Positions 1 to 63,803 of a DNA stretch of 64,000 nt are shown here, one piece after another. Source of the DNA: an uncultured Clostridia bacterium (GTDB taxonomy: Bacteria; Bacillota; Clostridia; Christensenellales; CAG-138); the NCBI GenBank assembly GCA_946614035.1, contig CAMOGJ010000001.1:59023-123022 (forward strand). Direction: 5' to 3'. A program made the translations under genes and the position numbers. Position 1 is the first letter of the stretch; every line of letters starts with the position of its first letter. The notes beneath the pieces are model-generated. The model was not told where the DNA came from. It was given only the letters and a program-made list of their open reading frames with translations, and did not search any database.

Positions 1-469
1 CGGTCGTGACGGTCCAGTTTTCTTCATCCGCCGATAGATAGATATAGGTTTTGCCGTCGATCTGTTCCCCGTACGACAGAATGTTCACCTGCGTATCGTC
101 GCCGTTCGCGATGCCGACCTCGATCCGGAACGAATACGGATCCTCGCACATCAGCTCGTCTATGGTCATCTGTACCTTGGTCTGCTGCTCGATGTGATAG
201 GCGGGAACGCCCATCGTGAAGTCGGCTTCGTAGTCGATGCCCACATGCAGGGATGCGATCTCCTGCATTTTTTCATACGCCGCCGTAAGCACGTCCTTGG
301 GATCCGGCGTCGGTTCGGGCGTGGGAGTCGGCGTCGGCTCCGGCGTAGGCGTCGGCGTGGGCGCTTCGGTCGGGACGGGGGTCGGCGTCGGCGCGATTTT
401 GCCCGGAATACAGGCGGAGAGCGCCAGCAGAAGTGCGAGAGAGAGAAGCAATGCGATGCAGCGTTTCAC
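1..469 (-). CDS. Secreted lipoprotein, function unknown (C-terminus lies beyond the window start)
   Basis: Read directly from the reverse strand; not in the ORF track. GTG start at 469-467, six nt after AAAGGAG inside the proC 3' end. N-terminus VKRCIALLLSLALLLALSAC is a signal peptide plus lipobox (LSAC). A TPTPVPTEAPTPTPTPEPTPTPTPEPTPDP linker follows. The frame stays open to position 1. Confidence 0.7.
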   Translation of the reverse strand, partial: MKRCIALLLSLALLLALSACIPGKIAPTPTPVPTEAPTPTPTPEPTPTPTPEPTPDPKDVLTAAYEKMQEIASLHVGIDYEADFTMGVPAYHIEQQTKVQMTIDELMCEDPYSFRIEVGIANGDDTQVNILSYGEQIDGKTYIYLSADEENWTVTT

Positions 470-45332: not shown

Positions 45333-45575
45333 ATGGAAGATCGTAAACTGCGTCCCCGTCGTCCGAGAAGCAGACGCAAAGTTTGCCGTTTCTGCGTTGA
45401 GAAGGCCACATCCATCGATTATAAGGACATCAAAAAGCTGCAGGGCTTCATTTCCGAGAGCGGAAAGATCATGCCCCGCCGTATGTCCGGCGTGTGCGCC
45501 GAGCATCAGCGCGATCTCGCGGTCGCGATCAAGCGCGCGCGGATCATGGCTCTGCTGCCCTACTGCGCAGAGTAA
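45333..45575 (+). CDS. rpsR: 30S ribosomal protein S18
   Basis: 80 aa behind AGGAGG. ...[11 protein letters not shown]...IDYKD...L..FISE.GKI.PRR.SG.CA.HQR.LA.AIKRAR..ALLPY. Confidence 0.95.
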
Positions 45576-45604
45576 GGAACCATCAAAACCAAAGACCGCT
45601 TAGC

Positions 45605-45632
45605 ACGAGACCCGAAAGGGCCTCGTTTTTTT
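45605..45632 (+). terminator. Rho-independent terminator of rpsR
   Basis: ACGAGACCCgaaaGGGCCTCGT (one mismatch) followed by TTTTTTT. Confidence 0.7.
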
Positions 45633-45635
45633 GCG

Positions 45636-45661
45636 CAAAAAAACCGCCCCCGTCGGGGCGG
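45636..45661 (-). terminator. Rho-independent terminator of the mgtC-family gene
   Basis: Minus strand: CCGCCCCgacgGGGGCGG followed by TTTTTTT. Confidence 0.7.
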
Positions 45662-45679
45662 TAAAGCGTTTGAAAGGAT

Positions 45680-46414
45680 TCAGCGGCCGATCTCGCAGCT
45701 CAGCGCCTTGACGCCGTCGATCGCGGAAAGGAAGCGCACCATATCGCTGACCGTCGTTTCCGCCTTCATGCGAAGCTGCATTTCGTAGATTGCTGTGCCG
45801 TCGTCGGCAAAGGTGATCTTCGAGGACAGCACCTGCACATGGTGCTTTTCGGAGAACGTGTCGAGCGCTTCGTTGAACGCATCGGCGTCCGCTACGGTGC
45901 AGCGGAGCTGTCCGATGCACATCGAGTCCGCGCCGACCGTGAAGCGGTGCATAAGAATCTGGATCACGGAGACCAGCACCGTTGCGAAGATGCCGATCAC
46001 GTACATGCCGGAGCCGATCGCAAGACCGATGCCCGCGGTTGCCCAGATGCCCGCCGCCGTCGTCAGACCGCGCACCGAGTTGCCGGTGCGGAAGATCATG
46101 CCCGCGCCGAGGAAGGAGACGCCGGAGATGATCTGCGCCGCGATACGCGCGGGATCCGCGCCGCGGGTGCCGTTGAACATCACGCCGGTCGGCGAGGTCA
46201 GATCGGCAAACGCGTACTTCGAAACGATCATGGTCAATCCCGCCGCGCAGCAGACGATGACGTGCGTGCGGACGCCCGCCTCCTTCAAGCGCTTGGTGCG
46301 CTCGAATCCGATGCACGCGCCGCAGATGCACGAGATGAAGATACGCAGAAAGAATTCGAGATACTGGAGCAGCGAAAACTGTCCGAGCATGTAACCGGCA
46401 AGGGTACTATACAT
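45680..46414 (-). CDS. MgtC/SapB-family membrane protein with C-terminal ACT-like soluble domain
   Basis: 244 aa. ...LRIFISCICGACIGFERTKRLKEAGVRTHVIVCCAAGL... and ...DPARIAAQIISGVSFLGAG.IF... are hallmark MgtC-family motifs. Confidence 0.85.
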   Translation of the reverse strand: MYSTLAGYMLGQFSLLQYLEFFLRIFISCICGACIGFERTKRLKEAGVRTHVIVCCAAGLTMIVSKYAFADLTSPTGVMFNGTRGADPARIAAQIISGVSFLGAGMIFRTGNSVRGLTTAAGIWATAGIGLAIGSGMYVIGIFATVLVSVIQILMHRFTVGADSMCIGQLRCTVADADAFNEALDTFSEKHHVQVLSSKITFADDGTAIYEMQLRMKAETTVSDMVRFLSAIDGVKALSCEIGR

Positions 46415-46448
46415 GGAAACCTACCGCCTTTCGCAGAAAAAATGAAGT

Positions 46449-46507
46449 AGCGCAAACGTTTGCGCTGTTGATTATTTAATCTTATCATGTTCCGCCGCGC
46501 TTGTCAA
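46449..46507 (-). promoter_or_regulatory. Promoter plus 18-bp palindromic LacI-type operator of the mgtC-family gene
   Basis: Minus strand reads TTGACA (46507-46502), N17, TAAGAT (46484-46479), N12, AGCGCAAACGTTTGCGCT (46466-46449). The start codon is 34 nt further on. Identical hexamers, spacings and operator recur at 56997-57055. Confidence 0.65.
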
Positions 46508-46521
46508 TCGCAAACGCCCGT

Positions 46522-48687
46522 TTAGTGCAGAATCAACATGTAGAAGAATACGAAGCACAGCGCCGCGACCAGCATCAGCAGCGCGAATGACAGGTTGCCG
46601 AACAGACGGTGGCTCGTATCGCGAACGGTTTTGTGCGCGCGGTAGACGCCCTCCGCATAGCGGCGGCTGCCCTGCGCCTCCTTGCCGTGCCGCTGTTCGA
46701 TGCGGTCGATCTGCCGTCCGAGCCGGTAGGAGAACGAGGCGCGCGCCTCGTCTTCAACGGGCTGCGCAAGCTCGCGGTAGGCGGTCTTTCGCAGCAGCAG
46801 GATCGCCGCGTCGAGCGAATCCGACAGCGCGTGGGAGAGCAGCAAACCAAGCTTCATTGCGCCCTTTGCAAGCGGCGCGGTCAGCTTGTTTTTTCCGAAC
46901 AGCGCGGCAACGGCTTCGCTGCCGTGCAGCACGCCCCTTGCAAGCGGCGCGGAAAGCCTGTTTTCGCCGAACAGCGCGGCGATCGCGCCGAACGCGCCGG
47001 GAAGCCACTTCAACAGCAGCGGGCGATAGAGAAGCTCCTCAAGATCGAGCCATTCCGGCCAGCGGTTCACATAGACGCGCACGCCGCCCTCGCGCTTCAT
47101 CAGAACGGTGCGCACGAAGCCGAAGTACAGCGCGACGCCGATCGCGATCGAGATCAGCCCGCCCTTGAGGTTTTCCCACGAAAGGTAGTGTACCGCGTGT
47201 TCGAGCGCGCCGGCGCGGAAGAAGTCGGTGCCGAGGTCGGCGATCGCGTTCATCGAAACGGATGCGGAGAGTCCCAGCGCGGGCAGCGCGAGCGCGCACA
47301 GCAGGAGCACGGCGGTGCTGATGCGGTTCATGTACGGCCGTTTCGCGTCGAACGCCGCCTGCTTGGTCGGATGCGCTTCAACAAAGAGCGCAACGAACAG
47401 CTTGGTCATGTATGCGACGGTGACGCCGCCGGAAAAGAGGAAGATCCATTCGACGGCTCGCAGCGCGAACGCGCCGGTTGCGGCGATTCCCTCGACGATG
47501 CTTTCGTGCAGCAGCGTCTTTGAGACGTACCCGTTCAGCAGCGGAACGCCGCCGATGCCGAGCGCGCCGAGCAGGAACGCGAGCATCAGAACCGGCTTGC
47601 GCCTGCCGAAGCCGCGCACGTCGTTGAGATTCAGCGCGTGCAGGTTCATGTACACGACGGCGGCGCAGAGGAACAGGACGAGCTTGAACAGCGAATGGTT
47701 CAGCATGTGCAGCAGCGCGCCGCGGGCGGCGAGCGCGTTTTCCTCGCCGAGGATGCCGAGCATGCCGATGCCGATGAGGATGAACCCGATCTGCGAGACC
47801 GACGAGCAGGCGAGCGTGCGCTTGAGGTCGATCGAGAATAGCGCGAGCAGCGCGCCGAGCAGCATCGTGACCGTGCCGAGCGCGAGGATCACCGCGCCCC
47901 ACGCGGGATCGTTGCGGAACAGATTGCAGGTGATCGCGAGCATGCCGAAGATGCCGGATTTGGTGAGCAGACCGGACAGCAGCGCGCTTGCGGGCGCGGG
48001 CGCGACCGGATGCGCCTTGGGCAGCCAGATGTGCAGCGGGAACATGCCTGCCTTTGCACCGAAGCCGAACAGCACGCAGCCGCCTGCGACGTACAGGATC
48101 GCCTTGTTATCGCACGCCCGCGCAGCGTCGTACAGCGCACAAATCTCCGTCGTGCCGAGCGTAAATTGGAGCAGGAACAGTCCCATCAGCGCAGCAAGAC
48201 CGCCGATCACGGCGACGGCAAGGTACGTGTTCGCCGCTTTCGTCGCGGCGGGCGTCTCCTCCTGAATGACCCAGGTGTAGGATGTGAACGACATGATCTC
48301 GAAGAAGATCAGCGCCGTGAACAGATCGCGCGCGAGAAACACGCCCATCGTCGCGCCGAGCGTCATGAGGTTGAAGAAGTAGTAGCGGTTCTCGGTCGTG
48401 TAATGCGAGAAGTACTCGTTGCCGAGCAGCATCGTCATCGTCCACAGGAACGCGATCACGACGAGGTAGACCTTGCGGAACCCGTCGGTTTCGAAGTGTA
48501 TCCCGAGCCCGACGACGCCGTCGATGCCGGTCTGCATGTCCGGACGGAGCATCACCGCGACGGCGAGCAGCAGCTCGATCACGGTCGTGCCTGCGGCGAG
48601 CAGGTTGCGCGCGCGGCGGTTTTTGCGGCCGGTCAGCCATACGGCGAACGCCGCCGCCATCGGGAAGAAGATCAAAGCGTACAGCAT
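46522..48687 (-). CDS. Mrp/NuoL-type antiporter-like subunit with long C-terminal extension (MrpA-N/NuoL-like)
   Basis: 721 aa behind GGAGG. About 490 aa of proton-conducting-membrane-transporter core (...WLPKAHPVAPAPASALLSGLLTKSGIFG...). Then an extra TM helix, an amphipathic ~150-aa segment and a final TM anchor (FALLMLVAALCFVFFYMLIL), reminiscent of the NuoL/MrpA lateral helix. Confidence 0.8.
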   Translation of the reverse strand: MLYALIFFPMAAAFAVWLTGRKNRRARNLLAAGTTVIELLLAVAVMLRPDMQTGIDGVVGLGIHFETDGFRKVYLVVIAFLWTMTMLLGNEYFSHYTTENRYYFFNLMTLGATMGVFLARDLFTALIFFEIMSFTSYTWVIQEETPAATKAANTYLAVAVIGGLAALMGLFLLQFTLGTTEICALYDAARACDNKAILYVAGGCVLFGFGAKAGMFPLHIWLPKAHPVAPAPASALLSGLLTKSGIFGMLAITCNLFRNDPAWGAVILALGTVTMLLGALLALFSIDLKRTLACSSVSQIGFILIGIGMLGILGEENALAARGALLHMLNHSLFKLVLFLCAAVVYMNLHALNLNDVRGFGRRKPVLMLAFLLGALGIGGVPLLNGYVSKTLLHESIVEGIAATGAFALRAVEWIFLFSGGVTVAYMTKLFVALFVEAHPTKQAAFDAKRPYMNRISTAVLLLCALALPALGLSASVSMNAIADLGTDFFRAGALEHAVHYLSWENLKGGLISIAIGVALYFGFVRTVLMKREGGVRVYVNRWPEWLDLEELLYRPLLLKWLPGAFGAIAALFGENRLSAPLARGVLHGSEAVAALFGKNKLTAPLAKGAMKLGLLLSHALSDSLDAAILLLRKTAYRELAQPVEDEARASFSYRLGRQIDRIEQRHGKEAQGSRRYAEGVYRAHKTVRDTSHRLFGNLSFALLMLVAALCFVFFYMLILH

Positions 48688-48697
48688 GGCGTGCCTC

Positions 48698-50176
48698 CTA
48701 TATCAGCCCGAACGCGATCGCGTCCGTTGCGGCAAGGATCGGTTTTGCGAACACGCCGCACAGCAGGGTTGCGGCGGCGAGCAGAACCATCGGCACAAGC
48801 ATTTCCCACGACGCCTCGTGCACGGTTTCGAGCCCGTCGAGGTTCGAATCGCGGGCGGGGAACCACGCGCGGCGCACGCAGGTCAGCATGTAGATCGCGG
48901 TCAGCAGCGCGGAGAGCAGCAGCGCGCCTGCGCCGACGTACGCGATGCCGGACGACTGTGCGGCCGCGGTCAAAAGCTGCCACTTGCTCACGAAACCGGA
49001 GAAGGGCGGAAGCCCCATCAGCGCGAACGATGCGAGCGTGAAGCAGGCGAAGGTCACGGGCATTCTGCGTCCGAGCCCGTCGAGCTCGTAGATGCTCGTG
49101 CGACCGGTTCCGTGCAGCACCGCGCCCGCGCAGAAGAAGCCGAGAATTTTGATGTTCGCGTGCGCCGCCATGTGCATGAGCGACGCGGAGAGCCCGGCGG
49201 GGGTCATCAGCACCGCGCCGAAGAGGATATAGGACAGGTTCGCGACCGTCGAGTATGCGAGCCGGCGCTTGAAGTGCGTTTCACGCACCGCGATCGACGA
49301 GCCGTACACGATCGTGAACGACGCGAGCAGGATCGCGACGGTCTGCGCCCACGAGCCGGACAGCAGATCGACGCCGAAACAGTAGTGCGTCAGGCGGATC
49401 ACCGCGAACGCGCCGGACTTGACGACCGCCACCGCGTGCAGCAGCGCCGTCACGGGCGTCGGGGCGACGGATGCCTTGGGCAGCCATGCGTGCAGCGGAA
49501 AGATCGCCGCCTTGACCGAGAAGCCCAGGAACCCGAACAGCCAGAAGAGATAGGTGACGTCCCTGCTTGCAAACGGATGTGCGGCAAGGTTCCCGCCGGG
49601 CGCGAACGAACCGGATGCGCCGTTGACGAGCAGGAACATCATCGCGGCGAACGCGAACGCCGCGCCGCCGATCGAGAACAGGAAGTACATGCGCGTCGCA
49701 TGGACCGCCGCTTTGGTCATCGGCTGCAGCACGAGCGGGACGGTCGCGAGCGTCAAAATCTCGTAGAAGCAGTACATCGTAAAGAGATTGTCTGCCATCG
49801 CCACGCCGAGCGTCGCGCCGTAGGAGACGGTGAAGAACCCAAAGAACATCGCGATATGCTCTTCATTCTTCATGTACGAGCGCGCATACAGCACGGTCAA
49901 CGGCCAGAGCACGGACACGATCCCGACGAAGAACCGCCCGAGCCCGTCGAGCGAGAACGACAGCGCCAGCGCGGGCGCAAAGCGCACCGGCTCATATGCA
50001 CCGTTCACGCCACTTATGAGCAGCATCCAGCAGAAAGCCGAGGTCAGGAAGCTCAGAACCAGCGCCGCGTCCGCAATCGCGCGAAACGAAGCGCGCTTGC
50101 ATGCGAGAAGCAGCAGGCCGGACAGGAACGGAATCGATATGCAGATGGGCAGCAGAAACGGACTCATGCCATTCAC
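48698..50176 (-). CDS. Mrp subunit D / NuoN-like antiporter subunit (copy 3)
   Basis: 492 aa; alternative start ATG 50167. ...HAWLPKASVAPTPVTALLHAVAVVKSGAF... is the core motif of the MrpD/NuoM/N family. Confidence 0.8.
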   Translation of the reverse strand: MNGMSPFLLPICISIPFLSGLLLLACKRASFRAIADAALVLSFLTSAFCWMLLISGVNGAYEPVRFAPALALSFSLDGLGRFFVGIVSVLWPLTVLYARSYMKNEEHIAMFFGFFTVSYGATLGVAMADNLFTMYCFYEILTLATVPLVLQPMTKAAVHATRMYFLFSIGGAAFAFAAMMFLLVNGASGSFAPGGNLAAHPFASRDVTYLFWLFGFLGFSVKAAIFPLHAWLPKASVAPTPVTALLHAVAVVKSGAFAVIRLTHYCFGVDLLSGSWAQTVAILLASFTIVYGSSIAVRETHFKRRLAYSTVANLSYILFGAVLMTPAGLSASLMHMAAHANIKILGFFCAGAVLHGTGRTSIYELDGLGRRMPVTFACFTLASFALMGLPPFSGFVSKWQLLTAAAQSSGIAYVGAGALLLSALLTAIYMLTCVRRAWFPARDSNLDGLETVHEASWEMLVPMVLLAAATLLCGVFAKPILAATDAIAFGLI

Positions 50177-50177
50177 C

Positions 50178-51644
50178 TTACAGCAGGGATGCGGCGAGCG
50201 CCGACGTCCATTGCGTCAGCGGTCCCGCAAAGATGCCCGCGAGCAGAGAAATCGCCGCGAGCAGCGCGATCGGCAGCCACATCGCCGCGCCACCCTCGTT
50301 CGTGCGCGCAAGCGGCGGAAAGTCTTTGCCGGGGAAGAAACCGTTGATCGTGATCGGCAGAAGGTAGCCCGCGGTCAGCAGCGCGGAAACGAGCAGTATG
50401 ACCGGTGCGAGCCAGTTGAGCACCGGAAGACCCGTATCGAGCGCACCGAGCGCCAGATACCACTTGCTGACAAAGCCCGCGGCGGGCGGAATGCCGATGA
50501 GGCCGAGCGATGCGATCGTGAACGCCCACAGCGTGACGGGCATCGCCCTGCCGACGCCCCGAAGCTCGGATACGCGCGTCTTTTCGAGGTTCACGATGAA
50601 CGATCCCGCGACGAGGAACAGGCAGATCTTAATGCACGCATGGAACACGACGTGCAAGAGACCGCCCGCGATGCTCTGCGCCGTCATGCAGAACAGACCG
50701 CACAGGACGTAGGAAATCTGGCTGACCGACGAATACGCGAGCCGTTTTTTGAACACGTCCTCGCGGTATGCCATCATCGAGCCCATGAACACCGTGAGCA
50801 ACGACAGCGCGATCCACGTAATCTGCACCCAGGTGCCCGAAAGGAAGTCCGCGCCGACGATGTAAAAGATCACGCGCAGGATCGCAAGGACGCCCGCCTT
50901 GGTGATGACGGCGGAGAGCACGGCGCTTGCGGGCGCGGGGGCGACGGGGTGCGCGGTCGGCAGCCAACCGTGCAGCGGGTACATGCCCGCTTTCGCGCCG
51001 AAACCCAGAACGCCCAGAAAGACGGTGACTTCCAGCAGCGTGCGGTGCGACTGCGCGAGCGCATTCAGCGTGCCGCCTGCGGCGAAGGTCAGCGAGTCGG
51101 TGTATTGTGAAAGCGTAAAGATCGCGAGCAGCGCCAAAAATGCGCCGCCGACGGAATAGAACAGGTACTTCAGCGCCGCGCGGATCGATTCCTGCGTGCG
51201 CTCATGCAGCACCAGCGGCATCGACAGCAGCGTCGCCGCTTCGAAGAACAGGTACATTGTGATCAGGTTTTGGGAGGCGTCCATGCCGACGAGCGCCGCG
51301 AGCGAGAACAGCATCCATGCGTAGAACGCCGCCTGCCGCTCGCCGTGCGCCATGTAGCGCGTCGCGTAGACGCCCGCGAACAGGAATCCGAACGCGCCGA
51401 CGGACAGGAACAGCCGTCCGACGCCGTCGGTCGCAAAGCCGACGGACAGCGTGTCGGTCATCGAAAACAGATGCACGGCTGCATCCGGCAGGAACAGATA
51501 CCAGAGGCAGCAGACCGCCTCGAGCACGAGCGCGGCGACAAATACCGCGTTTGCCGTGGTGCGCTTCGCCCGCTTCATGCAGGCGAGCGCGATGCCGAAG
51601 CCGATCGGGATCAGCAGCATAGCAATTAACAGAATCCGATTCAT
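50178..51644 (-). CDS. Mrp subunit D / NuoM-like antiporter subunit (copy 2)
   Basis: Track ORF trimmed to ATG 51644 (MNRILLIAMLLIPIGF) behind GAGGAGGG. ...HGWLPTAHPVAPAPASAVLSAVITKAGV... Confidence 0.8.
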   Translation of the reverse strand: MNRILLIAMLLIPIGFGIALACMKRAKRTTANAVFVAALVLEAVCCLWYLFLPDAAVHLFSMTDTLSVGFATDGVGRLFLSVGAFGFLFAGVYATRYMAHGERQAAFYAWMLFSLAALVGMDASQNLITMYLFFEAATLLSMPLVLHERTQESIRAALKYLFYSVGGAFLALLAIFTLSQYTDSLTFAAGGTLNALAQSHRTLLEVTVFLGVLGFGAKAGMYPLHGWLPTAHPVAPAPASAVLSAVITKAGVLAILRVIFYIVGADFLSGTWVQITWIALSLLTVFMGSMMAYREDVFKKRLAYSSVSQISYVLCGLFCMTAQSIAGGLLHVVFHACIKICLFLVAGSFIVNLEKTRVSELRGVGRAMPVTLWAFTIASLGLIGIPPAAGFVSKWYLALGALDTGLPVLNWLAPVILLVSALLTAGYLLPITINGFFPGKDFPPLARTNEGGAAMWLPIALLAAISLLAGIFAGPLTQWTSALAASLL

Positions 51645-51654
51645 GAAACCCTCC

Positions 51655-53145
51655 TCAGAGCAGGCCGAGCCCGCGTTCCAGCAGCAGCACAAGCGGTTCC
51701 GCCGCGACGCCGCAGACAATGTTCATCAGGACAAAGACGATCGCAGAGATCGCATAAACGCCCTGCTTGCGCAAAGCGCTGCGCTGCGCACCGTCGTCCC
51801 GGTTCACCGGCAGGTACAGAGCGATGATGACGCGCATAAAGTACCAGCCGTTCAGAATCGTGCTGAGCGCAAGCACGATCAGCGTCGGCACAATCAGAGC
51901 CGTGCGCTCAAACGCCGCGGCCGCGAAGCGGTACTTGCTGACGAATCCCATCGTCAGCGGAATGCCGATCATACTGAACGCGCAGATCGAAAACGTCAGA
52001 GCCGCGATCCGGTTCCGGTGCCCCGCCCCGCGCCAGTTTGCGCGAAGCCGTCCGTTCGCGGTGTCGCTCAGCTGTGCCGCCGAAAGGAACAGCGGCGGCT
52101 TGGTGATCGCGTGCGTCAGGATATGGAACAGCGCGGCGAGCACGCCGAGCCGCGGCGAAATGCCGATGCCCATGTACACATAGCCGATCTGCGCCGCGGA
52201 CGAGTACGCGATCATGCGGAATACGTCCTTCTCGCGCAGCGCGCTGATGCTGCCGACGACGATTCCGATCGCGCCGAACACGTACAGAATGTTCGAGACG
52301 CCGCTTCGATAGAACACGTCGGTGCCGAACACGCGGAAGATCACGCGTAGCAGGAAGAAAATGTAGCCCTTCGAGACGAGACCGGAGAGGATCCCGCCCG
52401 ATGCGGGCGTTGCGTAGCCGTAGGTATCCGGCATCCAAAAGTGGAATGGGAACAGCCCGCTCTTGATCGCAAGACCGACCGTGATGAGACTGATCGCCGA
52501 CAGCAGCACGATGCGGTACTGTCCGCTCGCGTAAAGCTTGCCGATCGCTTCCTTCAGGTTCGGCATCAGCAGATGTCCGGTGATCGCGTAAAGCAGGATC
52601 ACGCCGAGCAGAAAGAGACCGGAGCCGATCAGCGAGAAGATCATGTAGCGGATCGAAGCGAGCGTCGTGCGTCCGATCTGACGGATCATCAGAAGCCCGC
52701 AGGATGAGATCGTACAGATTTCGATGAACACGTAACCGGTGAAGATGTCGTTCGTCGTCGCAAGCGCGATCAGCGCCGACAGCACCAGATCGCTCATTAC
52801 GTAGTACATGCGATGCTTGCCGTCCTCAAGGTCCTCGATGAGGTGCTTTCTGCCGCCGAGCAGGCACAGACCCATGACGACCGAAAACGCGCACAGCAGC
52901 AGCGGTTCGAGAACGCCGAAGTACAGTTCGTTGCCCCACGGGTGCGGGTAATGCCCCATCAGGTACGTTGTGCCGACGCCGGTGCGCATCCCGTATGCGA
53001 GCAGCATCCCCATGCCGACCGCGACGACGGCGCACAGCGCCAGCGAGAGCCGCCGCGCCGCGCGTCCGGACAGCACCGAACTGACGACGGAGCAGACCAG
53101 GCAGAGCACGATGGCAAACAGCGGAACATTCACGGAAAACGCCAT
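51655..53145 (-). CDS. Mrp subunit D / NuoN-like antiporter subunit (copy 1)
   Basis: Track ORF trimmed to ATG 53145 (MAFSVNVPLFAIVLCL), 2 nt after the mrpC stop. ...HFWMPDTYGYATPASGGILSGLVSKGYIF... Confidence 0.78.
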   Translation of the reverse strand: MAFSVNVPLFAIVLCLVCSVVSSVLSGRAARRLSLALCAVVAVGMGMLLAYGMRTGVGTTYLMGHYPHPWGNELYFGVLEPLLLCAFSVVMGLCLLGGRKHLIEDLEDGKHRMYYVMSDLVLSALIALATTNDIFTGYVFIEICTISSCGLLMIRQIGRTTLASIRYMIFSLIGSGLFLLGVILLYAITGHLLMPNLKEAIGKLYASGQYRIVLLSAISLITVGLAIKSGLFPFHFWMPDTYGYATPASGGILSGLVSKGYIFFLLRVIFRVFGTDVFYRSGVSNILYVFGAIGIVVGSISALREKDVFRMIAYSSAAQIGYVYMGIGISPRLGVLAALFHILTHAITKPPLFLSAAQLSDTANGRLRANWRGAGHRNRIAALTFSICAFSMIGIPLTMGFVSKYRFAAAAFERTALIVPTLIVLALSTILNGWYFMRVIIALYLPVNRDDGAQRSALRKQGVYAISAIVFVLMNIVCGVAAEPLVLLLERGLGLL

Positions 53146-53147
53146 AC

Positions 53148-53534
53148 TCACACCCCGTGTTCCTTCTGCGCCGACGCGTAGATTTCGTCCAGGTTCAGAC
53201 TGTGGTAGCGCTGATACAGCCGCACCGTCAGCGCGAGCATGACCGCCGTGACCGATACGGACACGACGATGCCGGTCAGCACGAGCCCCGCGGGCAGCGG
53301 ATTCACGTACCGCGTCGGGTCGGTGTCGCCGTTCTGAATGATCGGCGAGAGCCGGTTTTCGATGTAGCCGAGCGAGGTCAGCAGCAGGTATGCCGCCGTA
53401 TCCATGATGTTCAGTCCGATGATCTTCTTGAGAAGATTGCGGTGCAGCAGCAGGGTCACGAATCCCACGGCGAACAGGATCACCGCCGCAACGGCGATGC
53501 GGGAATCCCATAAACGAAGCAGCAGTTCACGCAT
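53148..53534 (-). CDS. mnhC: Mrp subunit C (NuoK-like)
   Basis: 128 aa in the frame of track ORF 53148..54401, start ATG 53534 overlapping the upstream stop (ATGA). ...LLKKIIGLNIMDTAAYLLL... and ...NPLPAGLVLTGIVVSVSVTAVMLAL... are typical of MnhC. Confidence 0.8.
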   Translation of the reverse strand: MRELLLRLWDSRIAVAAVILFAVGFVTLLLHRNLLKKIIGLNIMDTAAYLLLTSLGYIENRLSPIIQNGDTDPTRYVNPLPAGLVLTGIVVSVSVTAVMLALTVRLYQRYHSLNLDEIYASAQKEHGV

Positions 53535-55318: not shown

Positions 55319-55319
55319 G

Positions 55320-55856: not shown

Positions 55857-56843
55857 TTACAGGCGAAAATCCGCCCACACGGCGTTGTGATCGGAGAGCT
55901 GATCCCCGTTTTCCAGCACCGTGGACACGCAGCCGTGCCGTACGCACGTCGTGTGCTTTGAAACGATCCAGTCGAGATGGAGCTTTAAGAATCCGTCGCA
56001 GGTCGGGCGACGCCGCGTTTCGATGCGCTCGCCGTTGCAGGCGCGGTAGTCGAAACCCTCGCGCTCGATCGCGCGGAACAGCGGTTCGTGCTCCGTCGCG
56101 TCGACGATTTCGCCGGTCTTTTGCTGCCGAACGTACTGCGCCTCGGCGGCCTCCTGGCTGTAGTCGAATCCGTTCGTGTTGAAATCTCCGCCGATCAGCA
56201 CCGGCAGATCGCCGAACATGCGCTTTGCGTGCGTGAGGATCGCCTCGACCTGCTTTGCGCGTGCCTCGGGCGAGGTGCGGTTTTCAAGGTGCAGACTGAC
56301 CGCGCCGACGTGCGTTCCGGCGACGTCGAGCTCGCAGAACACCGCCACGCGCGCGCCGATGCGCTTCTGCTCGTCGAAGTACCAGTTATAGCCCTCCGGC
56401 AAATAGAGCGCGTCCGCCTTCACGATCGGCCAGCGCGAAAAGAGCGTGTTGCCCTCGTAGCCCTTTTGATCGCGCGGGTTCACAAGCTCGATGAACTCGA
56501 GCGCGTAGGCATACTGATACCCGAGCCGCTCGGCAAGCGCGCGGGACGCGTCGATGTTGCCGCTGCGCTCCGTGCCGTCGTCGAACTCGTTTCCAAACAG
56601 GATATCGGCATCCTTCAGCGTTTCGCATGATTGGAGAAAGTCCGCAATCTCCGAGATCCGATACCCGTGCTCCACGTTGAACACCGCCGCACGGATCGTT
56701 TCCGGCGGCTTGCGCGCTTTAAGGGGCAAAAGACCGGTTTCCGGTCCGTCAAACTGCGGGATTCGGCGCATGACGCGGAACTGACCGTCCGCCGGAACGT
56801 CGTCGGACAGACGCACGCGAAGGGAATAAGGGATCGCTTCCAT
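55857..56843 (-). CDS. Endonuclease/exonuclease/phosphatase (EEP) family protein
   Basis: Track ORF trimmed to ATG 56843 (MEAIPYSLRV) behind AGGAGAA. ...AAVFNVEHG..., ...ILFGNEFD..., ...GNTLFSRWPI..., ...VSLHLE..., ...GGDFNT..., ...SDHNAVWADF... follow the EEP catalytic pattern. Confidence 0.8.
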   Translation of the reverse strand: MEAIPYSLRVRLSDDVPADGQFRVMRRIPQFDGPETGLLPLKARKPPETIRAAVFNVEHGYRISEIADFLQSCETLKDADILFGNEFDDGTERSGNIDASRALAERLGYQYAYALEFIELVNPRDQKGYEGNTLFSRWPIVKADALYLPEGYNWYFDEQKRIGARVAVFCELDVAGTHVGAVSLHLENRTSPEARAKQVEAILTHAKRMFGDLPVLIGGDFNTNGFDYSQEAAEAQYVRQQKTGEIVDATEHEPLFRAIEREGFDYRACNGERIETRRRPTCDGFLKLHLDWIVSKHTTCVRHGCVSTVLENGDQLSDHNAVWADFRL

Positions 56844-56996: not shown

Positions 56997-57055
56997 TTGA
57001 CAAGAAAGGCGTCGCGTGGTAAGATTGTGACAGATGGAGCGCAAACGTTTGCGCT
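56997..57055 (+). promoter_or_regulatory. Promoter plus 18-bp palindromic LacI-type operator of the HAD/ABC-transporter operon
   Basis: TTGACA (56997-57002), N17, TAAGAT (57020-57025), N12, AGCGCAAACGTTTGCGCT (57038-57055). The ATG is 36 nt downstream. Exact architectural twin of 46449-46507. Confidence 0.65.
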
Positions 57056-57091: not shown

Positions 57092-57850
57092 ATGATTAAA
57101 GCCGTCATGTTCGATATGGGCGGGACACTGGAGGACCTCTATTCCGACGAAAAAAACGATCGTGCAACGGCATACGCGCTGTTTGAGATTCTGAAAAAGC
57201 ATGGGATCGAAGTCCCGTATGAGGCGGAACCGCTTTGGAAGATCGTCGGCGCGGGGATCACGGCGTACAAGAAGAATTCCGAGGTGACGCAGATCGAGCT
57301 GAAGCCCGAGGAAATCTGGTGCGACTGGGGATTCAAGGATATTCCGGTCGACAGAGAAAAGATCGCCGAAATCAGCGAGGAGATCGCGCACATGTGGGAA
57401 ACCACGTTCTATGACAGAAAGCTTCGCGAGCATGCGGCGGAGATGCTGAAAGGTCTCAAGGAGGACCTCGGACTGCACGTTGCGGTCGTCAGCAATACCG
57501 GCAGTCTGTTCCAGGTGTTCGATACGCTCACGAAGTACGGCGTGCGTCAGTACTTCGATGAGATCACGCTTTCCTCGATCGTCGGCTACCGCAAGCCGCA
57601 TCCGAACATCTTCCGCATCGCCTGCGCGCAGGCGAACCTCGATCCGTCCGAATGCGCGTTCGTCGGCGACACGCTCTCACGCGATGTGGTCGGCCCGAGA
57701 AAGATGGGGTTCGGTCGGGTGTTCAAGATCAACTCGTTTTTGACCAAGCAGAAGGACATCGGCAAGTTCGACGTCGCGCCGGACTACGAGGTTACGGATA
57801 TCTACGACGTTTACACGCTGCTCAAGAAGGAACTGCAGCCGGACGCATAA
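57092..57850 (+). CDS. HAD-superfamily hydrolase (phosphatase-like)
   Basis: Start ATG 57092 behind GGGAGGAG. MIKAVMFDMGGTL is HAD motif I (DxD/G). ...VVSNTG... is motif II. ...FVGDTLSRDVVG... is motif IV. Confidence 0.8.
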   Translation: MIKAVMFDMGGTLEDLYSDEKNDRATAYALFEILKKHGIEVPYEAEPLWKIVGAGITAYKKNSEVTQIELKPEEIWCDWGFKDIPVDREKIAEISEEIAHMWETTFYDRKLREHAAEMLKGLKEDLGLHVAVVSNTGSLFQVFDTLTKYGVRQYFDEITLSSIVGYRKPHPNIFRIACAQANLDPSECAFVGDTLSRDVVGPRKMGFGRVFKINSFLTKQKDIGKFDVAPDYEVTDIYDVYTLLKKELQPDA

Positions 57851-57880: not shown

Positions 57881-59722
57881 ATGGCAAAGAAAGGATGGAA
57901 ACGTCCGCCGATGACAAAGGCGCGGTTCAAGAACCAGTTCTTGAGCGTGATCGGCAATCCGTTCAACATGATCGTGCTTTTTACGCTGATCCTGCTGTTC
58001 ATTACGATTGTCATTCCGCTCCTGTCCATGGTGCAGAACACGTTTGTCGTCGCAAAATCGGAGCTGAGAAACATTCCCGGCTCGAAGGTGGGCGATTATA
58101 CACTCTGGTACTGGAAGTATCTTCTGGCGAGCCCGCTGACCAAGACGATCCTGTGGGTCCCGCTTCGCAACTCCCTGATCATCGGCGCATTCGTTACCGT
58201 CATCTCCGTCCCGCTCGGCGCGTTGATGGCGTGGCTGATGGTGCGCACCGACATCCCCTGCAAGGGGCTTCTGTCCGCGCTCATCCTGATTCCGTACATG
58301 ATCCCGTCCTGGTGCAAAGCACTTTCGTGGATGACGATCTTCCGCAACCCCAGCATGGGCGGCAACGGCGTGTTATCCAGTTTAGGCATACCGGTGCCGG
58401 ATGCGCTGGCGTCCGGCTTTGCCCCGATCATCATCGTCATGACGATGCACTACTATGCGTTCTCATACATCATGGCGAGCGGCGCGCTGCGCTCGATCAA
58501 CTCCGAGCTTGAGGAGATGGGCGAGATTCAGGGCGCAAGCAAGGCACAGATTCTAAAGAGCATCACGCTGCCGCTGATCCTGCCTTCGATCCTCTCGGCG
58601 ACGATCATGACGATCAGTAAGTCGATCGGCACCTACGGCGTGGCGGCGCGTCTTGGCGGCAACAACGCGGACGGCACCCCGTTCTATGTGCTTGCAACGC
58701 GCATGAAGGACTTCATCAACAACAGTCCGAAGGGCGTCGGCTATGCGATGTCCATCCTCATGATCCTGCTCGCGGCGGGCACGATCATCGTCAACCAGCG
58801 CCTGATCGGCACGCGCAAATCGTACGCGACGATCGGCGGCAAGGGCACGCGCTCGAACCTCATCCCGCTGCGCGGCGCAAAGTGGCCGATGCTGATCATC
58901 ATCACGATCTTTTTGATCGCGGCAATGGTCATGCCGGTGTTCTTCCTCGTGATGGAATCGTTCCAGGTCGTGCCGGGCGGCGGCTACGGCGCGGATAACC
59001 TTACGCTGTATGCGTGGATCGGCGAGCTGCAGAGCGCTCCGAACCCGGCCTTTAACCAGAACGGCCTGTTCCGCAATTCCGAGTTCACCAGAGCGCTGCT
59101 GAACACCGTCAAGCTCTCCCTGATCGCATCGCTCGTCACCGCAACGTTCGGTCAGTTCTTCGGCTATATCACGACCCGCGGCCGCGGCAAGTGGTACGGC
59201 AACATGGTCGAGCAGCTGATCTTTATCCCGTACCTGATGCCGGGCGTCGCATTCTCCGCAATCTACTTCGCAATGTTCTCGCAGCCGCGTCTCGGCGGAC
59301 TCATTCCTTCGCTGTACGGCACGTTCGCGCTGATCCTCATCGTCTCGATCGTCAAGCACTTCCCGTTCGCCAGCCGTTCCGGCTCCTCGAACATGATGCA
59401 GATCTCGGTTGAGCTGGAGGAAGCGGCGACGATCAACGGCGCCGGATTCTGGCGCAGGATCGGAAGCATCGTCATTCCGCTGGCAAAGAACGGCTTCCTC
59501 TCTGGCTTCCTGCTCTCCTTCATCAGCATCGCAAAAGAGCTCGACCTGATCGCCATTCTGATGACGCCGAAAAACTACACGCTGTCCTTCCTCGCATTCG
59601 ACTATTCGAAGGAAGCGATGCCGCAGGTGGCGGACGCGATCTGTATCGTCATCATCGCGTTCATTCTGATCACGAACCGCATTGCGGATAAGCTCGGCGG
59701 CAACGTCAGCAAGAGCATGTAA
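57881..59722 (+). CDS. ABC transporter permease, fused double (12-TM) CysTW/FbpB-type
   Basis: 613 aa behind GGAGG. Two tandem permease modules, each with an EAA-like loop (...LEEMGEIQGASKAQILKSITLPL... and ...LEEAATINGAGFWRRIGSIVIPL...). Confidence 0.85.
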   Translation: MAKKGWKRPPMTKARFKNQFLSVIGNPFNMIVLFTLILLFITIVIPLLSMVQNTFVVAKSELRNIPGSKVGDYTLWYWKYLLASPLTKTILWVPLRNSLIIGAFVTVISVPLGALMAWLMVRTDIPCKGLLSALILIPYMIPSWCKALSWMTIFRNPSMGGNGVLSSLGIPVPDALASGFAPIIIVMTMHYYAFSYIMASGALRSINSELEEMGEIQGASKAQILKSITLPLILPSILSATIMTISKSIGTYGVAARLGGNNADGTPFYVLATRMKDFINNSPKGVGYAMSILMILLAAGTIIVNQRLIGTRKSYATIGGKGTRSNLIPLRGAKWPMLIIITIFLIAAMVMPVFFLVMESFQVVPGGGYGADNLTLYAWIGELQSAPNPAFNQNGLFRNSEFTRALLNTVKLSLIASLVTATFGQFFGYITTRGRGKWYGNMVEQLIFIPYLMPGVAFSAIYFAMFSQPRLGGLIPSLYGTFALILIVSIVKHFPFASRSGSSNMMQISVELEEAATINGAGFWRRIGSIVIPLAKNGFLSGFLLSFISIAKELDLIAILMTPKNYTLSFLAFDYSKEAMPQVADAICIVIIAFILITNRIADKLGGNVSKSM

Positions 59723-59755: not shown

Positions 59756-60913
59756 ATGAGCAAGATCGTATTAAGTCACATCGATAAATTCTACGGCGAG
59801 AACCACGTTCTGCGCGACATCAATCTGACGATCGAGGACGGCGATTTCATGACGCTTTTGGGACCGTCCGGCTGCGGCAAAACCACCACGCTGCGCGTTG
59901 TCTCCGGTCTCGAAAAGCCGCAGCACGGCACGATGACGATCGACGATCGCACGATCATCGACGCCGCGGAGGCCTTCTATGAGTCGCCCAGCAAGCGCGG
60001 ACTGAACCTCGTGTTCCAGAGCTACGCGCTGTGGCCCCACATGACGGTGTTCCAGAATGTCGCGTTCGGTCTGAAGATCAAGAAAATGAAGAAGAGCGAG
60101 ATCGAAGAGACGGTCATGCGCGCGCTGAAGACCATGCGCATCGAGGAGTACCGCGACCGGTATCCGAACGAGCTGTCCGGCGGTCAGCAGCAGCGCGTCG
60201 CGATCGCCCGCGCGATCGCATCGAGCCCGAAGCTGCTCCTGCTCGACGAGCCGCTTTCGAACCTCGACGCAAGACTGCGCATCGACATGCGCGCGGAGCT
60301 CAAGCGCCTGCACAAGGATACCGGCACGACGATCATCTACGTCACGCACGATCAGGTCGAAGCGCTGACGATGTCCACGAAGATCGCGCTGTTCAAGGAA
60401 GGCGAGATCTCCCAGATCGACACGCCTCTGGGTCTCTACACGAACCCGATCGACCTGCAGGCGGCCGACTTCATCGGCAATCCGCGCATCAACTTCATCG
60501 ACGCGAAGGCGGTCTACAACGGCGACACGCTTTCGGTCACGAGCGAGTTCGGCACCTATGTGTACCCGCATGAGACCCTGAAGCTCGACGAGCAGATCCC
60601 CGAGGGCACCGAGTTCGACTGCGTGCTCGGTCTGCGCCCCGAAATGGTCGATATCTATACCGAGGATCCGCATCACAAGAACACGGTCGCCGCGAAGGTC
60701 TACGCAAACCAGCCCGCGGGCAGCGAAACGCTCGTCACGCTGACGGTCGGCGACATCGAGTTCCTTGCGATTCAGGTCGGTTTGGTAGAATATGATATGA
60801 ATCAAGATGTATTTGTTGTCTTGCATCCGGGCCGCATGAACGTGTATAATAAGGAGACGGGACGGCTCATCAAGTTTGCAAAGACGAAGCATAAGGCAGG
60901 CATCGACGACTGA
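59756..60913 (+). CDS. ABC transporter ATP-binding protein (PotA/FbpC/MalK-type with C-terminal TOBE-like domain)
   Basis: 385 aa. Walker A GPSGCGKTT, signature LSGGQQQRVA, Walker B LLLLDEPLS, H-loop YVTHD. Confidence 0.9.
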   Translation: MSKIVLSHIDKFYGENHVLRDINLTIEDGDFMTLLGPSGCGKTTTLRVVSGLEKPQHGTMTIDDRTIIDAAEAFYESPSKRGLNLVFQSYALWPHMTVFQNVAFGLKIKKMKKSEIEETVMRALKTMRIEEYRDRYPNELSGGQQQRVAIARAIASSPKLLLLDEPLSNLDARLRIDMRAELKRLHKDTGTTIIYVTHDQVEALTMSTKIALFKEGEISQIDTPLGLYTNPIDLQAADFIGNPRINFIDAKAVYNGDTLSVTSEFGTYVYPHETLKLDEQIPEGTEFDCVLGLRPEMVDIYTEDPHHKNTVAAKVYANQPAGSETLVTLTVGDIEFLAIQVGLVEYDMNQDVFVVLHPGRMNVYNKETGRLIKFAKTKHKAGIDD

Positions 60914-60947: not shown

Positions 60948-62249
60948 ATGAAAAAGATACTTGCAATCCTTCTTGCGTTGACGATGGTCGTGTCGCTTGC
61001 GGCATGTACGGGCAGCGAAACGCAGGAACTGCCGAGCGACGACGGCGCGCCCAAGACGGGCGTTGACGCAATCAACGTGATCGGCGAGGACGGCATCGAC
61101 TGGAATCACCTCTCGATGGACGAACTGTATGAAATGGCAAAGGCCGAAGGCGGCACGGTCACGATCTACGCGACGACCGCGGACGCCGATACGGCAAGAA
61201 AGTACATCCGCGACAAGTATCCGGATCTCAGCTTCGAGTACATCTCCTGCGACACCAACACGGTCATGAAGAAGATCGAGATGGAAGCGGAGAGCGGAAA
61301 CCCGATGGCGGACGTGCTGATGGTCAAGGACGCTTCCGGCGAAATCTACAATGAGCTCGTGCTCTGGGATCTCGTCAAGGTCTTCTATCCGGCGGATGTG
61401 TGCGAACACATCAAGGACGATATGCTGGCGTACGGTCTGCCGCTGTACTCCACGTTCAACCCGTGGTTCTACAACACGCGCATGTACGATTCCGTTCCGA
61501 TCAAGAGCTGGTGGGACATCGTCGAGGGCTATAACGTCGACACCCAGGCATTCAAGGATGCGAACGGCAACAACACGCAGTTCTGGACGATCTATTCGAA
61601 GGACATCACCGCCCCGTCGTATGCGGCGCTCTGGGCGCAGCTGATCGTGGACGGCGACAAGCTGGAAGCGCAGTATGAAAAGCAGTACGGCGAAAAGCTC
61701 GTCTACACCTATCAGGATCATCTGCAGAACACCCCGGGCGTCATGGAGCTTCCGGAGAACAACGCGGGCGTTGAACTGTTCTGGCGCTTCTCGCAGATGA
61801 CGATTGTTCCGCTGGCGGACGGCGACGCGGTCGTCGAAGCGGTCAACGATTCGGTCAACGGACCAACGCTCGGTCTGTGCTCGGCATCCAAGCTCGACAA
61901 CTCCAAGATATCGATGGGCGAGAGCGGCATGGACATCGCATGGGTCACGGGTCTGGAACCGTATACCGCGCAGGATGCGGCGGCGTACTCCTACGTGGTT
62001 TCCGGCTGCGACAATCCGGCTGGCGCGCGCCTGTTCATCCGCTTCATGATGGGCGATACCGACGGCACGAGCGGCTGTTATCAGGTGTTCGACAAGCTCG
62101 GCCACTGGTCCGTGCGCGACGACGTCGAATACAAGAAGTCCGGTATCACGTATGAGGACGTCAACCTCGTTTCGCCGAACTACGCGCAGATCTACGCGAA
62201 CTACCCGAACGTCAAGGCATACTGGAGTCTCTGGAACAGCACAAGATAA
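60948..62249 (+). CDS. ABC transporter substrate-binding lipoprotein
   Basis: Track ORF trimmed to ATG 60948. MKKILAILLALTMVVSLAAC is a signal peptide plus lipobox. About 410 aa mature periplasmic-binding-protein-like body. Substrate not inferable. Confidence 0.75.
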   Translation: MKKILAILLALTMVVSLAACTGSETQELPSDDGAPKTGVDAINVIGEDGIDWNHLSMDELYEMAKAEGGTVTIYATTADADTARKYIRDKYPDLSFEYISCDTNTVMKKIEMEAESGNPMADVLMVKDASGEIYNELVLWDLVKVFYPADVCEHIKDDMLAYGLPLYSTFNPWFYNTRMYDSVPIKSWWDIVEGYNVDTQAFKDANGNNTQFWTIYSKDITAPSYAALWAQLIVDGDKLEAQYEKQYGEKLVYTYQDHLQNTPGVMELPENNAGVELFWRFSQMTIVPLADGDAVVEAVNDSVNGPTLGLCSASKLDNSKISMGESGMDIAWVTGLEPYTAQDAAAYSYVVSGCDNPAGARLFIRFMMGDTDGTSGCYQVFDKLGHWSVRDDVEYKKSGITYEDVNLVSPNYAQIYANYPNVKAYWSLWNSTR

Positions 62250-62261: not shown

Positions 62262-62293
62262 TGCATTCCGCGGGAGCGATCCTGCGGAATGCA
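62262..62293 (+). terminator. Strong hairpin after the binding-protein gene (terminator-like, no clear T-run)
   Basis: TGCATTCCGCgggagcgatcctGCGGAATGCA: perfect 10-bp stem starting 13 nt after the stop. Confidence 0.4.
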
Positions 62294-62303
62294 CCTCACA
62301 CTT

Positions 62304-62846
62304 ATGGCAAAGGAACGCTCAAAACTGCAAAGACGAATCGACGCCTTTACGCGCGTGCTGTTTCTGGATGAAAACGGCAAGCCGAAAAGTGCGACGTTTC
62401 TGTATTCGTTTCTGCTGGCGATCCTCTTCGGCGTCATCTATGCCGCTTCGTATCTGCTGCTGCTCGACGTGCTGAACAACGCGTTCGGCGCGCTGCCGGT
62501 CTTTTGGCAGAACGTGCTGCAGTTTCTGATTCCGGCGATCGTGGGTTCGATCCCGTGCGTGCTGTCATTTTTCCTGTTCCGGGACGAGAATAAGCGGCTC
62601 GTGCCGGATGCATACCTGTGGCTGCTCGCCCTGCTCGTGCTGTTCATGCTTGCGGCGCTGCTGCTGATCGACTGGTCGGATGCGGCGACCGAGTACGGTC
62701 TCTTCTGGATGCTGCTCGGACTGCCGATGCTCGTCAGCGCGCTTGTCGGCGGCATACCGGCGTTTCTTCTGTACCGCGGTGAGCTGAAAAAACGCAAGGC
62801 GGCGCAGGAGCAGGCGAAAAAGAGACCTTCCTATTATAACACCTGA
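62304..62846 (+). CDS. Membrane protein, function unknown (4 predicted TM helices)
   Basis: Start moved to ATG 62304 (MAKERSK) because ATG 62289 lies inside the upstream hairpin. Lys/Glu-rich C-terminal tail. Confidence 0.5.
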   Translation: MAKERSKLQRRIDAFTRVLFLDENGKPKSATFLYSFLLAILFGVIYAASYLLLLDVLNNAFGALPVFWQNVLQFLIPAIVGSIPCVLSFFLFRDENKRLVPDAYLWLLALLVLFMLAALLLIDWSDAATEYGLFWMLLGLPMLVSALVGGIPAFLLYRGELKKRKAAQEQAKKRPSYYNT

Positions 62847-62849: not shown

Positions 62850-63803
62850 ATGCTGGAACTGTTCTTTTGCAACGTCGGCGACGGCGACGCGATCCTTCTG
62901 CGCGAGCATCGCGAGAACGAACCCGATTATACCGTTCTGGTGGATGCGGGAAGACCCTTTGTGGAGCCGCAGAACGGCTCTTTGCGCAAGGAAGCGATCT
63001 ATTTTCTGAAAGCGGCGGGCGTGGAACGCATCGACCGCATGTATCTGAGTCATCTGCACATCGACCACATCGGCGGCGCGATGCGCATCCTCAACGAGAT
63101 TTCCGTCGGGCGGATCGAAGCGCTGTGCTTCCCGCCGGACGGCGCAAAGTGGCTGATGCCGTCGTTTACCTCGACCGATAAGCCGACCAACGGTCTGCTG
63201 CACATGCTGAACATTTTCCGCGATCTGTGCAGGATGGCGGCGGCAAAGGGAACGGCGCTCGTGCCGGTCAGAGAAGGAGCCGAACGGCTGACGGACCGGC
63301 TGACGGTTGAACCGATTCTGCCCAAGGCAACGGTGATCGAACGGCAAAAGCGCGTGTTCGACGCCCTGTACCGCGGCGAACCGGTCGATGAGGCCGAGTG
63401 GTTCCGCGCTTCCAAGGAGCGCAATGTTTCGAGCGTCATGCTGCGATTCACCTATGCGGGGCGCAGCATCCTGCTGAGCGGCGACCGGTACGCCTCGGAT
63501 TTCGAGGATCTGCCGATCGAACCGTGCGACATCTGGAAGCTTCCGCATCACGGCGATCCCAAGTCCGTGACCGAACCGCTTCTTGAAAAGCTTTCCCCGC
63601 GTATCGCTGTGATCTCGTGTCAAAGCGATGCGACGGCGAAGAAGGACCGACCGAACGCGGGCGTGATCGCGCTGCTGCAGTCGAGCGCGGAATTCGTGCT
63701 TTGCACGGAAAACAAACCGCTGCCCACGATGCGCGCGTCCACGCACAACGGCGTTCTCGTCACGATCGACGAACAGGGGCAGATCACCTGCTCCGTCGTG
63801 TAA
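62850..63803 (+). CDS. MBL-fold metallo-hydrolase, ComEC C-terminal-domain type
   Basis: 317 aa. LFFCNVGDGDAILL, HLHIDHIGG (HxHxDH) and LPHHGDPKS follow the ComEC/Rec2-type beta-lactamase-fold pattern. Starts 3 nt after the upstream stop. Confidence 0.75.
   Translation: MLELFFCNVGDGDAILLREHRENEPDYTVLVDAGRPFVEPQNGSLRKEAIYFLKAAGVERIDRMYLSHLHIDHIGGAMRILNEISVGRIEALCFPPDGAKWLMPSFTSTDKPTNGLLHMLNIFRDLCRMAAAKGTALVPVREGAERLTDRLTVEPILPKATVIERQKRVFDALYRGEPVDEAEWFRASKERNVSSVMLRFTYAGRSILLSGDRYASDFEDLPIEPCDIWKLPHHGDPKSVTEPLLEKLSPRIAVISCQSDATAKKDRPNAGVIALLQSSAEFVLCTENKPLPTMRASTHNGVLVTIDEQGQITCSVV

Follow-up and report, generated by a model that had tools for sequence, protein, structure and literature searches.

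The MgtC protein of Salmonella is known to act on the balance of ATP, phosphate and Mg2+, and its gene is controlled by PhoP/PhoQ and by a sensor in the leader RNA. The role of MgtC-family proteins outside the enteric pathogens is obscure. In the current analysis we have examined an MgtC-family gene encoded in a 64-kb stretch of DNA from an uncultured Clostridia bacterium (the whole stretch is referred to here as the window). It has in common with the Salmonella gene a tight transcriptional control, which is predicted in the present case, and differs from it in having a putative LacI-type operator and a leader of 34 nt in the place of a long sensing leader. It is also tied to a pathway of phosphatases and an importer and not to the Mg2+ transporter mgtB.

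Nearly all the motifs of LacI-family regulators are even palindromes with a central CG, a length of 16-22 bp being used as the criterion, and 72% of these regulators are autoregulated (Ravcheev et al. 2014, PMC4052901). The palindrome identified in the window is 18 bp long, perfect and even, with a central CG (C9-G10). It shares the even 18-bp form and the central CG with the sites of the local repressors of the LacI/GalR family (PMC4052901), classic LacI at lacO1 among them. There are two further points of likeness, namely that the promoter of the regulator gene itself carries the site (in relatives of the present organism) and that the regulon is small and local and comprises a transporter with catabolic enzymes. 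The differences are that the regulator gene is unlinked here from both the targets, that the operator is predicted from sequence and that the regulon is made up of an MgtC-family protein with HAD and PHP phosphatases and not of glycoside hydrolases.

PurR is a global regulator of the gammaproteobacteria that needs a purine co-repressor. Its operator in E. coli, the PUR box, with the perfect form ACGCAAACGTTTGCGT, has an inner 14 bp (CGCAAACGTTTGCG) identical to that of the palindrome in the window. However, the LacI-family protein encoded with the corresponding genes in related genomes (referred to below as the cluster LacI) has the recognition helix SYATVSR where PurR has STTTVSH, and no purine genes are found here; for these reasons the PurR system has been rejected. 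CcpA (E = 1e-48) and RbsR are also closer PDB matches of the cluster LacI than is PurR (E = 5e-41).

CcpA of the Firmicutes, the best of these PDB matches, belongs to the same family and its cre sites have the same AANCGNTT core. The sites described here differ from cre in having CG and not TG at the outer positions and in being confined to one gene cluster, the promoter of the regulator itself included. IolQ (DegA) of Bacillus subtilis is a LacI-family repressor of inositol dehydrogenase genes. Its likeness to the system of the relatives is one of gene content, a LacI-family repressor being linked in both to an inositol 2-dehydrogenase-type gene, whereas the regulon of the relatives' cluster differs in comprising an ABC importer, five HADs, a PHP protein and MgtC. 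One of the LacI database matches carries the automatic name DegA.

Two promoters and the genes they serve

The original prediction described, on the minus strand from 46507 to 46449, a promoter followed by a palindrome, and this layout is exact to the nucleotide. The -35 hexamer TTGACA (46502..46507, minus strand) is separated by 17 nt from the -10 hexamer TAAGAT (46479..46484, minus strand), and a further 12 nt lead to the 18-bp perfect palindrome AGCGCAAACGTTTGCGCT (46449..46466), from which 34 nt remain to the ATG at 46414. The twin described on the plus strand at 56997-57055, at a distance of 10.5 kb, is equally exact, with the same hexamers (TTGACA at 56997..57002 and TAAGAT at 57020..57025), the same spacings and the same 18-mer (57038..57055), followed by 36 nt to the ATG at 57092. 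Both sites are assigned by a consensus scan to the sigma-70 type of promoter, each agreeing at 10 of 12 positions, and in both a TG precedes the -10 to give an extended -10. The palindrome had been placed just downstream of the -10, and the gap of 12 nt is read on both strands; the two ATGs follow at 43 and 45 bp from the centres of the predicted operators.

The blocks common to the two promoters are slightly longer than had been given, extending to ATTGACAAG and TG-N-TAAGATT. The spacers, described earlier as unrelated, are identical at 11 of 29 positions, which was judged by eye not to be clearly above chance, and the description is essentially right. The 18-mer has exactly two copies in the 64-kb window when up to 3 mismatches are allowed, both at promoters; the chance expectation for matches is 0.14, and two or more matches were obtained in none of 100 shuffles. 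Copies of the 16-mer core that differ from it at 1-2 positions are absent from the window. A generic repeat had been named beforehand as the reading that would speak against an operator. Within the window the two copies at promoters and the absence of near-copies speak against such a repeat, and a dispersed repeat of the REP or MITE kind is rejected on the same grounds.

Matrix scans near the two promoters revealed no auxiliary (looping) operators above 9 bits. A half-site-like GCGTTTGCGA just 5' of the mgtC -35 is common only to the close relative L135 and was judged not to be meaningful. Around the ribosome-binding site and start codon of the HAD gene (57080-57094) the sequence GGAGGAGCGCAAATG repeats the left half of the operator, AGCGCAAA, and in RNA this repeat could pair with the right arm of the operator. 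It is probably incidental, since it is kept only among close relatives.

The first unit consists of a single gene (45680..46414, minus strand) coding for an MgtC/SapB-family protein of 244 aa (Pfam PF02308, E = 8e-36). The score of this protein with the NCBIfam model PRK09977 is 164 bits, under the cutoff of 214. The unit is closed by an intrinsic-terminator-like hairpin (45643..45662, minus strand) with an 8-pair stem, 7 of the pairs being GC, and the T-run TTTTTTT. The gene upstream of mgtC ends 14 nt before the mgtC -35 with no terminator in between.

The second unit begins with a HAD-IA phosphatase of 252 aa (57092..57850, plus strand), assigned by Pfam and NCBIfam and sharing 84% identity with the cluster HAD of the related locus L126. 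It is followed on the same strand by a fused ABC importer permease of 613 aa with two BPD_transp_1 domains (57881..59722; 92% identity to L126), an ABC ATPase of 385 aa (59756..60913) supported by domain matches and a homologue in relatives, and a lipoprotein solute-binding protein (60948..62249) with a weak SBP_bac_1 match and a signal sequence ending in LAAC. A small membrane protein of 185 aa (62289..62846) and an MBL-fold hydrolase of 317 aa (62850..63803) complete the operon, and both are kept in the operon with homologues in the relatives. No sequence relative of the solute-binding lipoprotein was found in the PDB, and none of the transporter or HAD components of the operon reaches a curated cutoff in NCBIfam. 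The permease is closest to the ModB, PhnU and CysT models of NCBIfam, and going by these nearest models the importer may be of the anion type.

Divergent from the HAD/ABC operon is a gene of the endonuclease/exonuclease/phosphatase (EEP) family (55857..56843, minus strand), which in the lineage of the window always adjoins mgtC and lies divergent from HAD-ABC. A matrix scan of the window detected no operator for the EEP gene, and its 5' side (intergenic region 56844-57091) shows only a weak promoter-like TTGCAA-18-TATATT, so that it is no more than a candidate member of the regulon.

A cluster of the Mrp/Mnh antiporter type, 9.2 kb in length (46536-55738; genes 46522-55823, minus strand), lies between the stop codon of the EEP gene and the mgtC promoter. 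It comprises MnhE, MrpF, MnhG, MbhD, MnhB/MbhE and four NuoL/M/N-like subunits. The cluster is missing from L133/L134 and from most of the metagenome relatives; its presence in L148 is suggested by the distance between mgtC and EEP there, which is of similar size. The locus L135 (92-94% DNA identity) retains 85 nt of the first antiporter gene and 14 nt of the last, a remnant resembling the scar of a deletion at a microhomology of about 12 nt.

A LacI-headed gene cluster in related genomes

The LacI-operator reading of the palindrome, put forward in the original prediction, is supported by comparative genomics on three sides: the association of its core with LacI genes, a LacI-headed cluster in the relatives and the orthologous promoters of the lineage. 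The exact 16-mer GCGCAAACGTTTGCGC occurs widely among bacteria, with at least 120 loci in a scan of a genome collection; the matches listed are mostly from unrelated taxa and have been used only for the association with LacI. Among the matches listed, a LacI-family gene is present in 36 of 120 loci of 8 kb, and in about 15 of those 36 the 16-mer lies within ~140 bp of the start of the LacI-family gene. By our rough estimate this is far more often than the usual density of LacI genes in genomes would give.

A scan of metagenomes with the pattern TTGACA-16..18-TAnnnT-4..20-GCGYAAACGTTTRCGC returned 115 loci, of which 25 have beside the site an unrelated gene of the LacI family (25-34% identity to the cluster LacI), starting in most cases just downstream of the site.

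A LacI-family gene whose product is 38-40% identical to PurR is situated a few kb from the 16-mer in Janthinobacterium, Herbaspirillum and Collimonas. Among the matches listed, a LacI-family gene directly adjoins the 16-mer at several loci of Prevotella, and the 16-mer is also found in the Streptococcus mitis group. Its recurrence in such distant groups suggests that one core is used by many unrelated LacI-family regulators.

The nearest relatives in the databases are labelled as uncultured 'Clostridia bacterium' MAGs from gut metagenomes. In three pairs of loci (L126/L127, L131/L132 and L128/L129, at 84%, 87% and 73% HAD identity) mgtC adjoins the HAD-ABC genes behind a LacI gene, in the order LacI-PHP-PfkB-MgtC followed by HAD-permease-ATPase-SBP-membrane-MBL. 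A further locus, L130 (70% HAD identity), has LacI-PHP followed by mgtC and a single HAD gene without the ABC genes. Alongside, in all those loci, is a divergent operon of 3-4 more HAD phosphatases and a protein similar to the cofactor-independent phosphoglycerate mutase (iPGM-like), often followed by an IolG or UxaE gene. The pairing of MgtC with the HAD-ABC genes is thus a conserved gene-cluster association and is not peculiar to the genome of the window.

A regular-expression scan for promoter plus operator in nine genomes, three of them from the lineage of the window, gave 21 instances, none at unrelated genes. They are located at the promoters of LacI, of the divergent HAD operon and of HAD-ABC, at one UxaE promoter and, in the window's lineage, at the mgtC promoters. 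The promoter of the cluster LacI gene itself bears the motif in six lineages, every LacI promoter being included, and both units are clustered in the relatives with a putatively autoregulated LacI gene. At every promoter of the cluster, that of LacI included, the palindrome CG-N-AAACGTTT-N-CG is situated just downstream of the -10, with a gap of 5 to 19 nt in the LacI-adjacent lineages. The consensus of the operator is (A/T)N-CG-N-AAACGTTT-N-CG-N(A/T); some sites were collected by regular expressions demanding TTGACA and a AAACGTTT-like core, and the invariance of those columns is to that extent imposed. A matrix trained on 15 sites, all from outside the lineage of the window, scores both sites in the window at 24.8 bits, within the 20-27 bits of the training sites, and elsewhere in the 64 kb the highest score is 11.7 bits.

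In the L128 locus extra operator-like sites of 18-19 bits are found at 9694-9711, 6153-6170 and 1673-1690, at 40-270 bp from the main operators, and could be auxiliary looping sites. One of them overlaps the mgtC stop codon, and there is no equivalent near the promoters in the window.

The LacI orthologues have an invariant helix-turn-helix recognition region, VSYATVSRALSGS, and the hinge ARSMV in five of six cases, AQSMV being found in L130. The invariance of VSYATVSRALSGS matches that of the operator core AAACGTTT. The earlier statement that the window has no LacI-family gene is borne out by tblastn, in which E. coli PurR, B. subtilis CcpA and the LacI proteins of the relatives gave no match. 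Five loci (L136-L140) have LacI-PHP-PfkB operons without mgtC and HAD-ABC and keep the operator at the promoter, and such an unlinked LacI-PHP-PfkB operon is the arrangement predicted for the genome of the window. A large group of LacI homologues of 336 aa, at 65-71% identity, was also considered as the counterpart of the HAD group of the window's lineage; the resemblance is in abundance only and has not been relied upon.

Based on these comparisons the two palindromes are predicted to be operators of a single LacI-family repressor with its gene outside the window, an orthologue of the protein that heads the LacI-PHP-PfkB genes of the relatives and has the VSYATVSRALSGS helix-turn-helix. We assign this reading a probability of roughly 0.8.

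It could also be that the cluster LacI has been lost here, where tblastn does not find it in the window, and that the sites are used by another paralogue or by CcpA. The cre consensus accommodates the core GNAANCGNTNNC, and some half-sites of the relatives are of the TG type, like those of cre. Compared over the whole length, however, the sites in the window mismatch the cre consensus TGWAANCGNTNWCA at 4 of the 10 specified positions, with C/G in the place of the outer T/A and C/G at W positions. On this basis they are not good cre sites. The form CG-N-AAACGTTT-N-CG is moreover specific to the cluster promoters, including that of LacI in six lineages, and no other site above 12 bits is present in the 64 kb, unlike what is seen with a global regulon. 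Binding by a LacI-family protein other than the cluster orthologue is considered quite unlikely.

Conserved bases and conserved geometry

The palindrome is also the dominant hairpin when leader segments of the two units in the window are folded (-13.8 and -19.3 kcal/mol), the fold of the HAD leader has a z of -2.5, and a terminator scan flags both sites as a stem with a T-rich tail. A reading is therefore conceivable in which the conserved function resides in a hairpin of the 5' leader RNA, serving as a stabiliser or as an attenuator of hairpin plus U-tract, and the DNA palindrome is a by-product. The comparison of 27 distinct sites argues against it, as the two arms vary independently: pairing amounts to 77.2%, against 76.6 +/- 1.8 in shuffled sets (a value reached in 199 of 500), at the three variable pairs the bases fail to match in 12-13 of the 27 sites, and there is no excess of compensatory change, in which a test on 18 sites agrees. 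Specific bases (AAACGTTT and the CG) are kept and not the pairing, and half-sites that vary independently of each other and yet retain the identity of their bases are characteristic of a site bound by a protein. The hairpin is not formed by the orthologous leaders in L126 and L128, and the motif adjoins LacI genes in many phyla. An intrinsic terminator or structured leader has been rejected on the lack of covariation, on a T-run that begins 6-8 nt past the stem, which is non-canonical for a terminator, and on an Rfam search of 45400-57400 that gave no match at E <= 1. A hairpin as the conserved function is still less likely than a different LacI-family binder, and a secondary effect at the RNA level may accompany the function of the palindrome as an operator.

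The predicted operators are kept in the lineage of the window itself. The closest relatives, L135 (96%) and L133/L134 (88%), have the order rpsR-> <-mgtC <-EEP and then HAD-ABC->, with both the promoters present and no LacI gene nearby. The metagenome scan added 17 further loci of the same arrangement, with identities of the EEP protein going down to ~60%, and the operator upstream of mgtC is kept in L133, L135 and about 15 of the metagenome loci. A search that permitted spacers of 16-18 nt and gaps of 6-18 nt gave 36 promoters of the two types in 20 loci. All 36 have TTGACA and a spacer of 17 nt, and a gap of 12 nt separates the -10 from the 18-mer in 32 of them, against one of 11 nt in the other 4. 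The -10 varies among them (TAAGAT, TAATAT, TATGAT, TACTAT) and the sequences of the spacers drift. The operator is thus kept upstream of orthologous genes, at 36 promoters in 20 loci, as the flanks drift.

This bears on the earlier suggestion that the likeness of the two promoters reflects selection on the regulatory elements and not a recent duplication, a suggestion that the retained geometry and diverged spacers of 36 orthologous promoters uphold. Judged by these alignments the twin geometry has been conserved in the lineage and is not a chance feature of a single genome, and any duplication behind it would be old. The view that a recent duplication or rearrangement copied a promoter cassette or left a generic repeat, without selected regulatory meaning, could draw on the common blocks reaching slightly past the hexamers (ATTGACAAG, TAAGATT), on the clear movement of mgtC in evolution and on the insertion or deletion of the 9.2-kb Mrp-type cluster at the mgtC promoter, but is the least credible of the readings, as the 64 kb contain no more than two copies, each at a promoter, spacer identity (11/29 in the window, 6/29 in L133) shows no residual similarity of the kind left by duplication, and the orthologous retention of both promoters across 20 diverged loci implies that any duplication is ancient and that the elements are held by selection.

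The strongest argument for selected co-regulation comes from the position of mgtC. As a member of the LacI operon the gene lacks a separate operator, and where it has moved away the operator is present; that mgtC bears the operator only outside the LacI operon argues that its co-regulation with the other genes has been selected.

Predicted mechanism and possible role of the regulon

With the operator placed 12 bp downstream of the extended -10, it would cover about +7 to +24 of the transcript, counted from the inferred transcription start. A dimer of the LacI orthologue on each operator would block initiation or promoter escape, repression being expected here and not activation. At mgtC the repressor, once bound, would in addition halt transcription running in from the upstream genes, since the gene before it ends 14 nt from the -35 without a terminator. 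The repressor would be released by the effector, presumably an intermediate in the form of a phosphorylated sugar or inositol, and the MgtC-family gene and the HAD-phosphatase/ABC-importer operon would then be switched on together. Induction of this kind is favoured by us over co-repression in the style of PurR; a PurR-like co-repressor mode or cross-talk with CcpA may be alternatives. The feature is real and by every testable sequence criterion appears to represent a LacI-family local regulon, the regulation of which would be mechanistically ordinary and of the textbook LacI type. The content of the regulon is uncharacterised and mildly interesting.

The gene set codes for the ABC importer, five paralogous HAD phosphatases, a PHP phosphatase, a PfkB kinase, the iPGM-like protein and the EEP and MBL hydrolases. 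The iPGM-like gene of the relatives (L126:1363-2931; also in L128, L130, L131 and L136) appears to be circularly permuted with respect to the canonical cofactor-independent phosphoglycerate mutase, as residues 15-303 align to 219-508 of enzymes of solved structure and the order of the Pfam domains is swapped.

In three lineages the divergent HAD operon ends with a GFO/IDH/MocA gene (L126:301-1314, L131:294-1307, L136:4035-5054). It passes the NCBIfam equivalog cutoff for the inositol 2-dehydrogenase IolG (448 bits against 355) in all three. In L128 and L130 an epimerase of the UxaE family takes the place of the IolG gene, with an operator of its own in L128.

The occurrence of an inositol 2-dehydrogenase equivalog together with about six phosphatases is a hint of a phosphorylated inositol or sugar. 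The regulon might speculatively serve the uptake and dephosphorylation of such a compound. A more specific proposal, which we regard as tentative and on balance unlikely, is an undescribed cytoplasmic pathway of uncultured gut Clostridia that takes up a compound with several phosphate groups, possibly phytate or another inositol polyphosphate, and removes the phosphates stepwise. It is prompted by the anion-type importer, the HAD and PHP phosphatases, the EEP and MBL hydrolases, the permuted iPGM-like mutase and the inositol 2-dehydrogenase equivalog. Searches of the literature for this gene combination or for a link with phytate gave nothing relevant, and no paper on the cluster was found. 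By analogy with the Salmonella protein, MgtC could buffer the release of phosphate. If the phytate-type reading is true, MgtC would be a built-in safeguard of the Mg2+ and phosphate balance during a large release of phosphate, and the LacI repressor would sense an intermediate of the pathway.

The predicted regulon would join three scattered loci of an uncultured lineage of gut Clostridia. Besides mgtC and the HAD/ABC operon it would include a LacI-PHP-PfkB operon with an operon of four HADs and the iPGM-like protein, both predicted for another part of the genome. A sharp motif is now at hand for finding further members. The tie between an MgtC-family protein and a phosphatase-rich import pathway may offer a route to the substrate of the pathway and to the role of MgtC in the Firmicutes.
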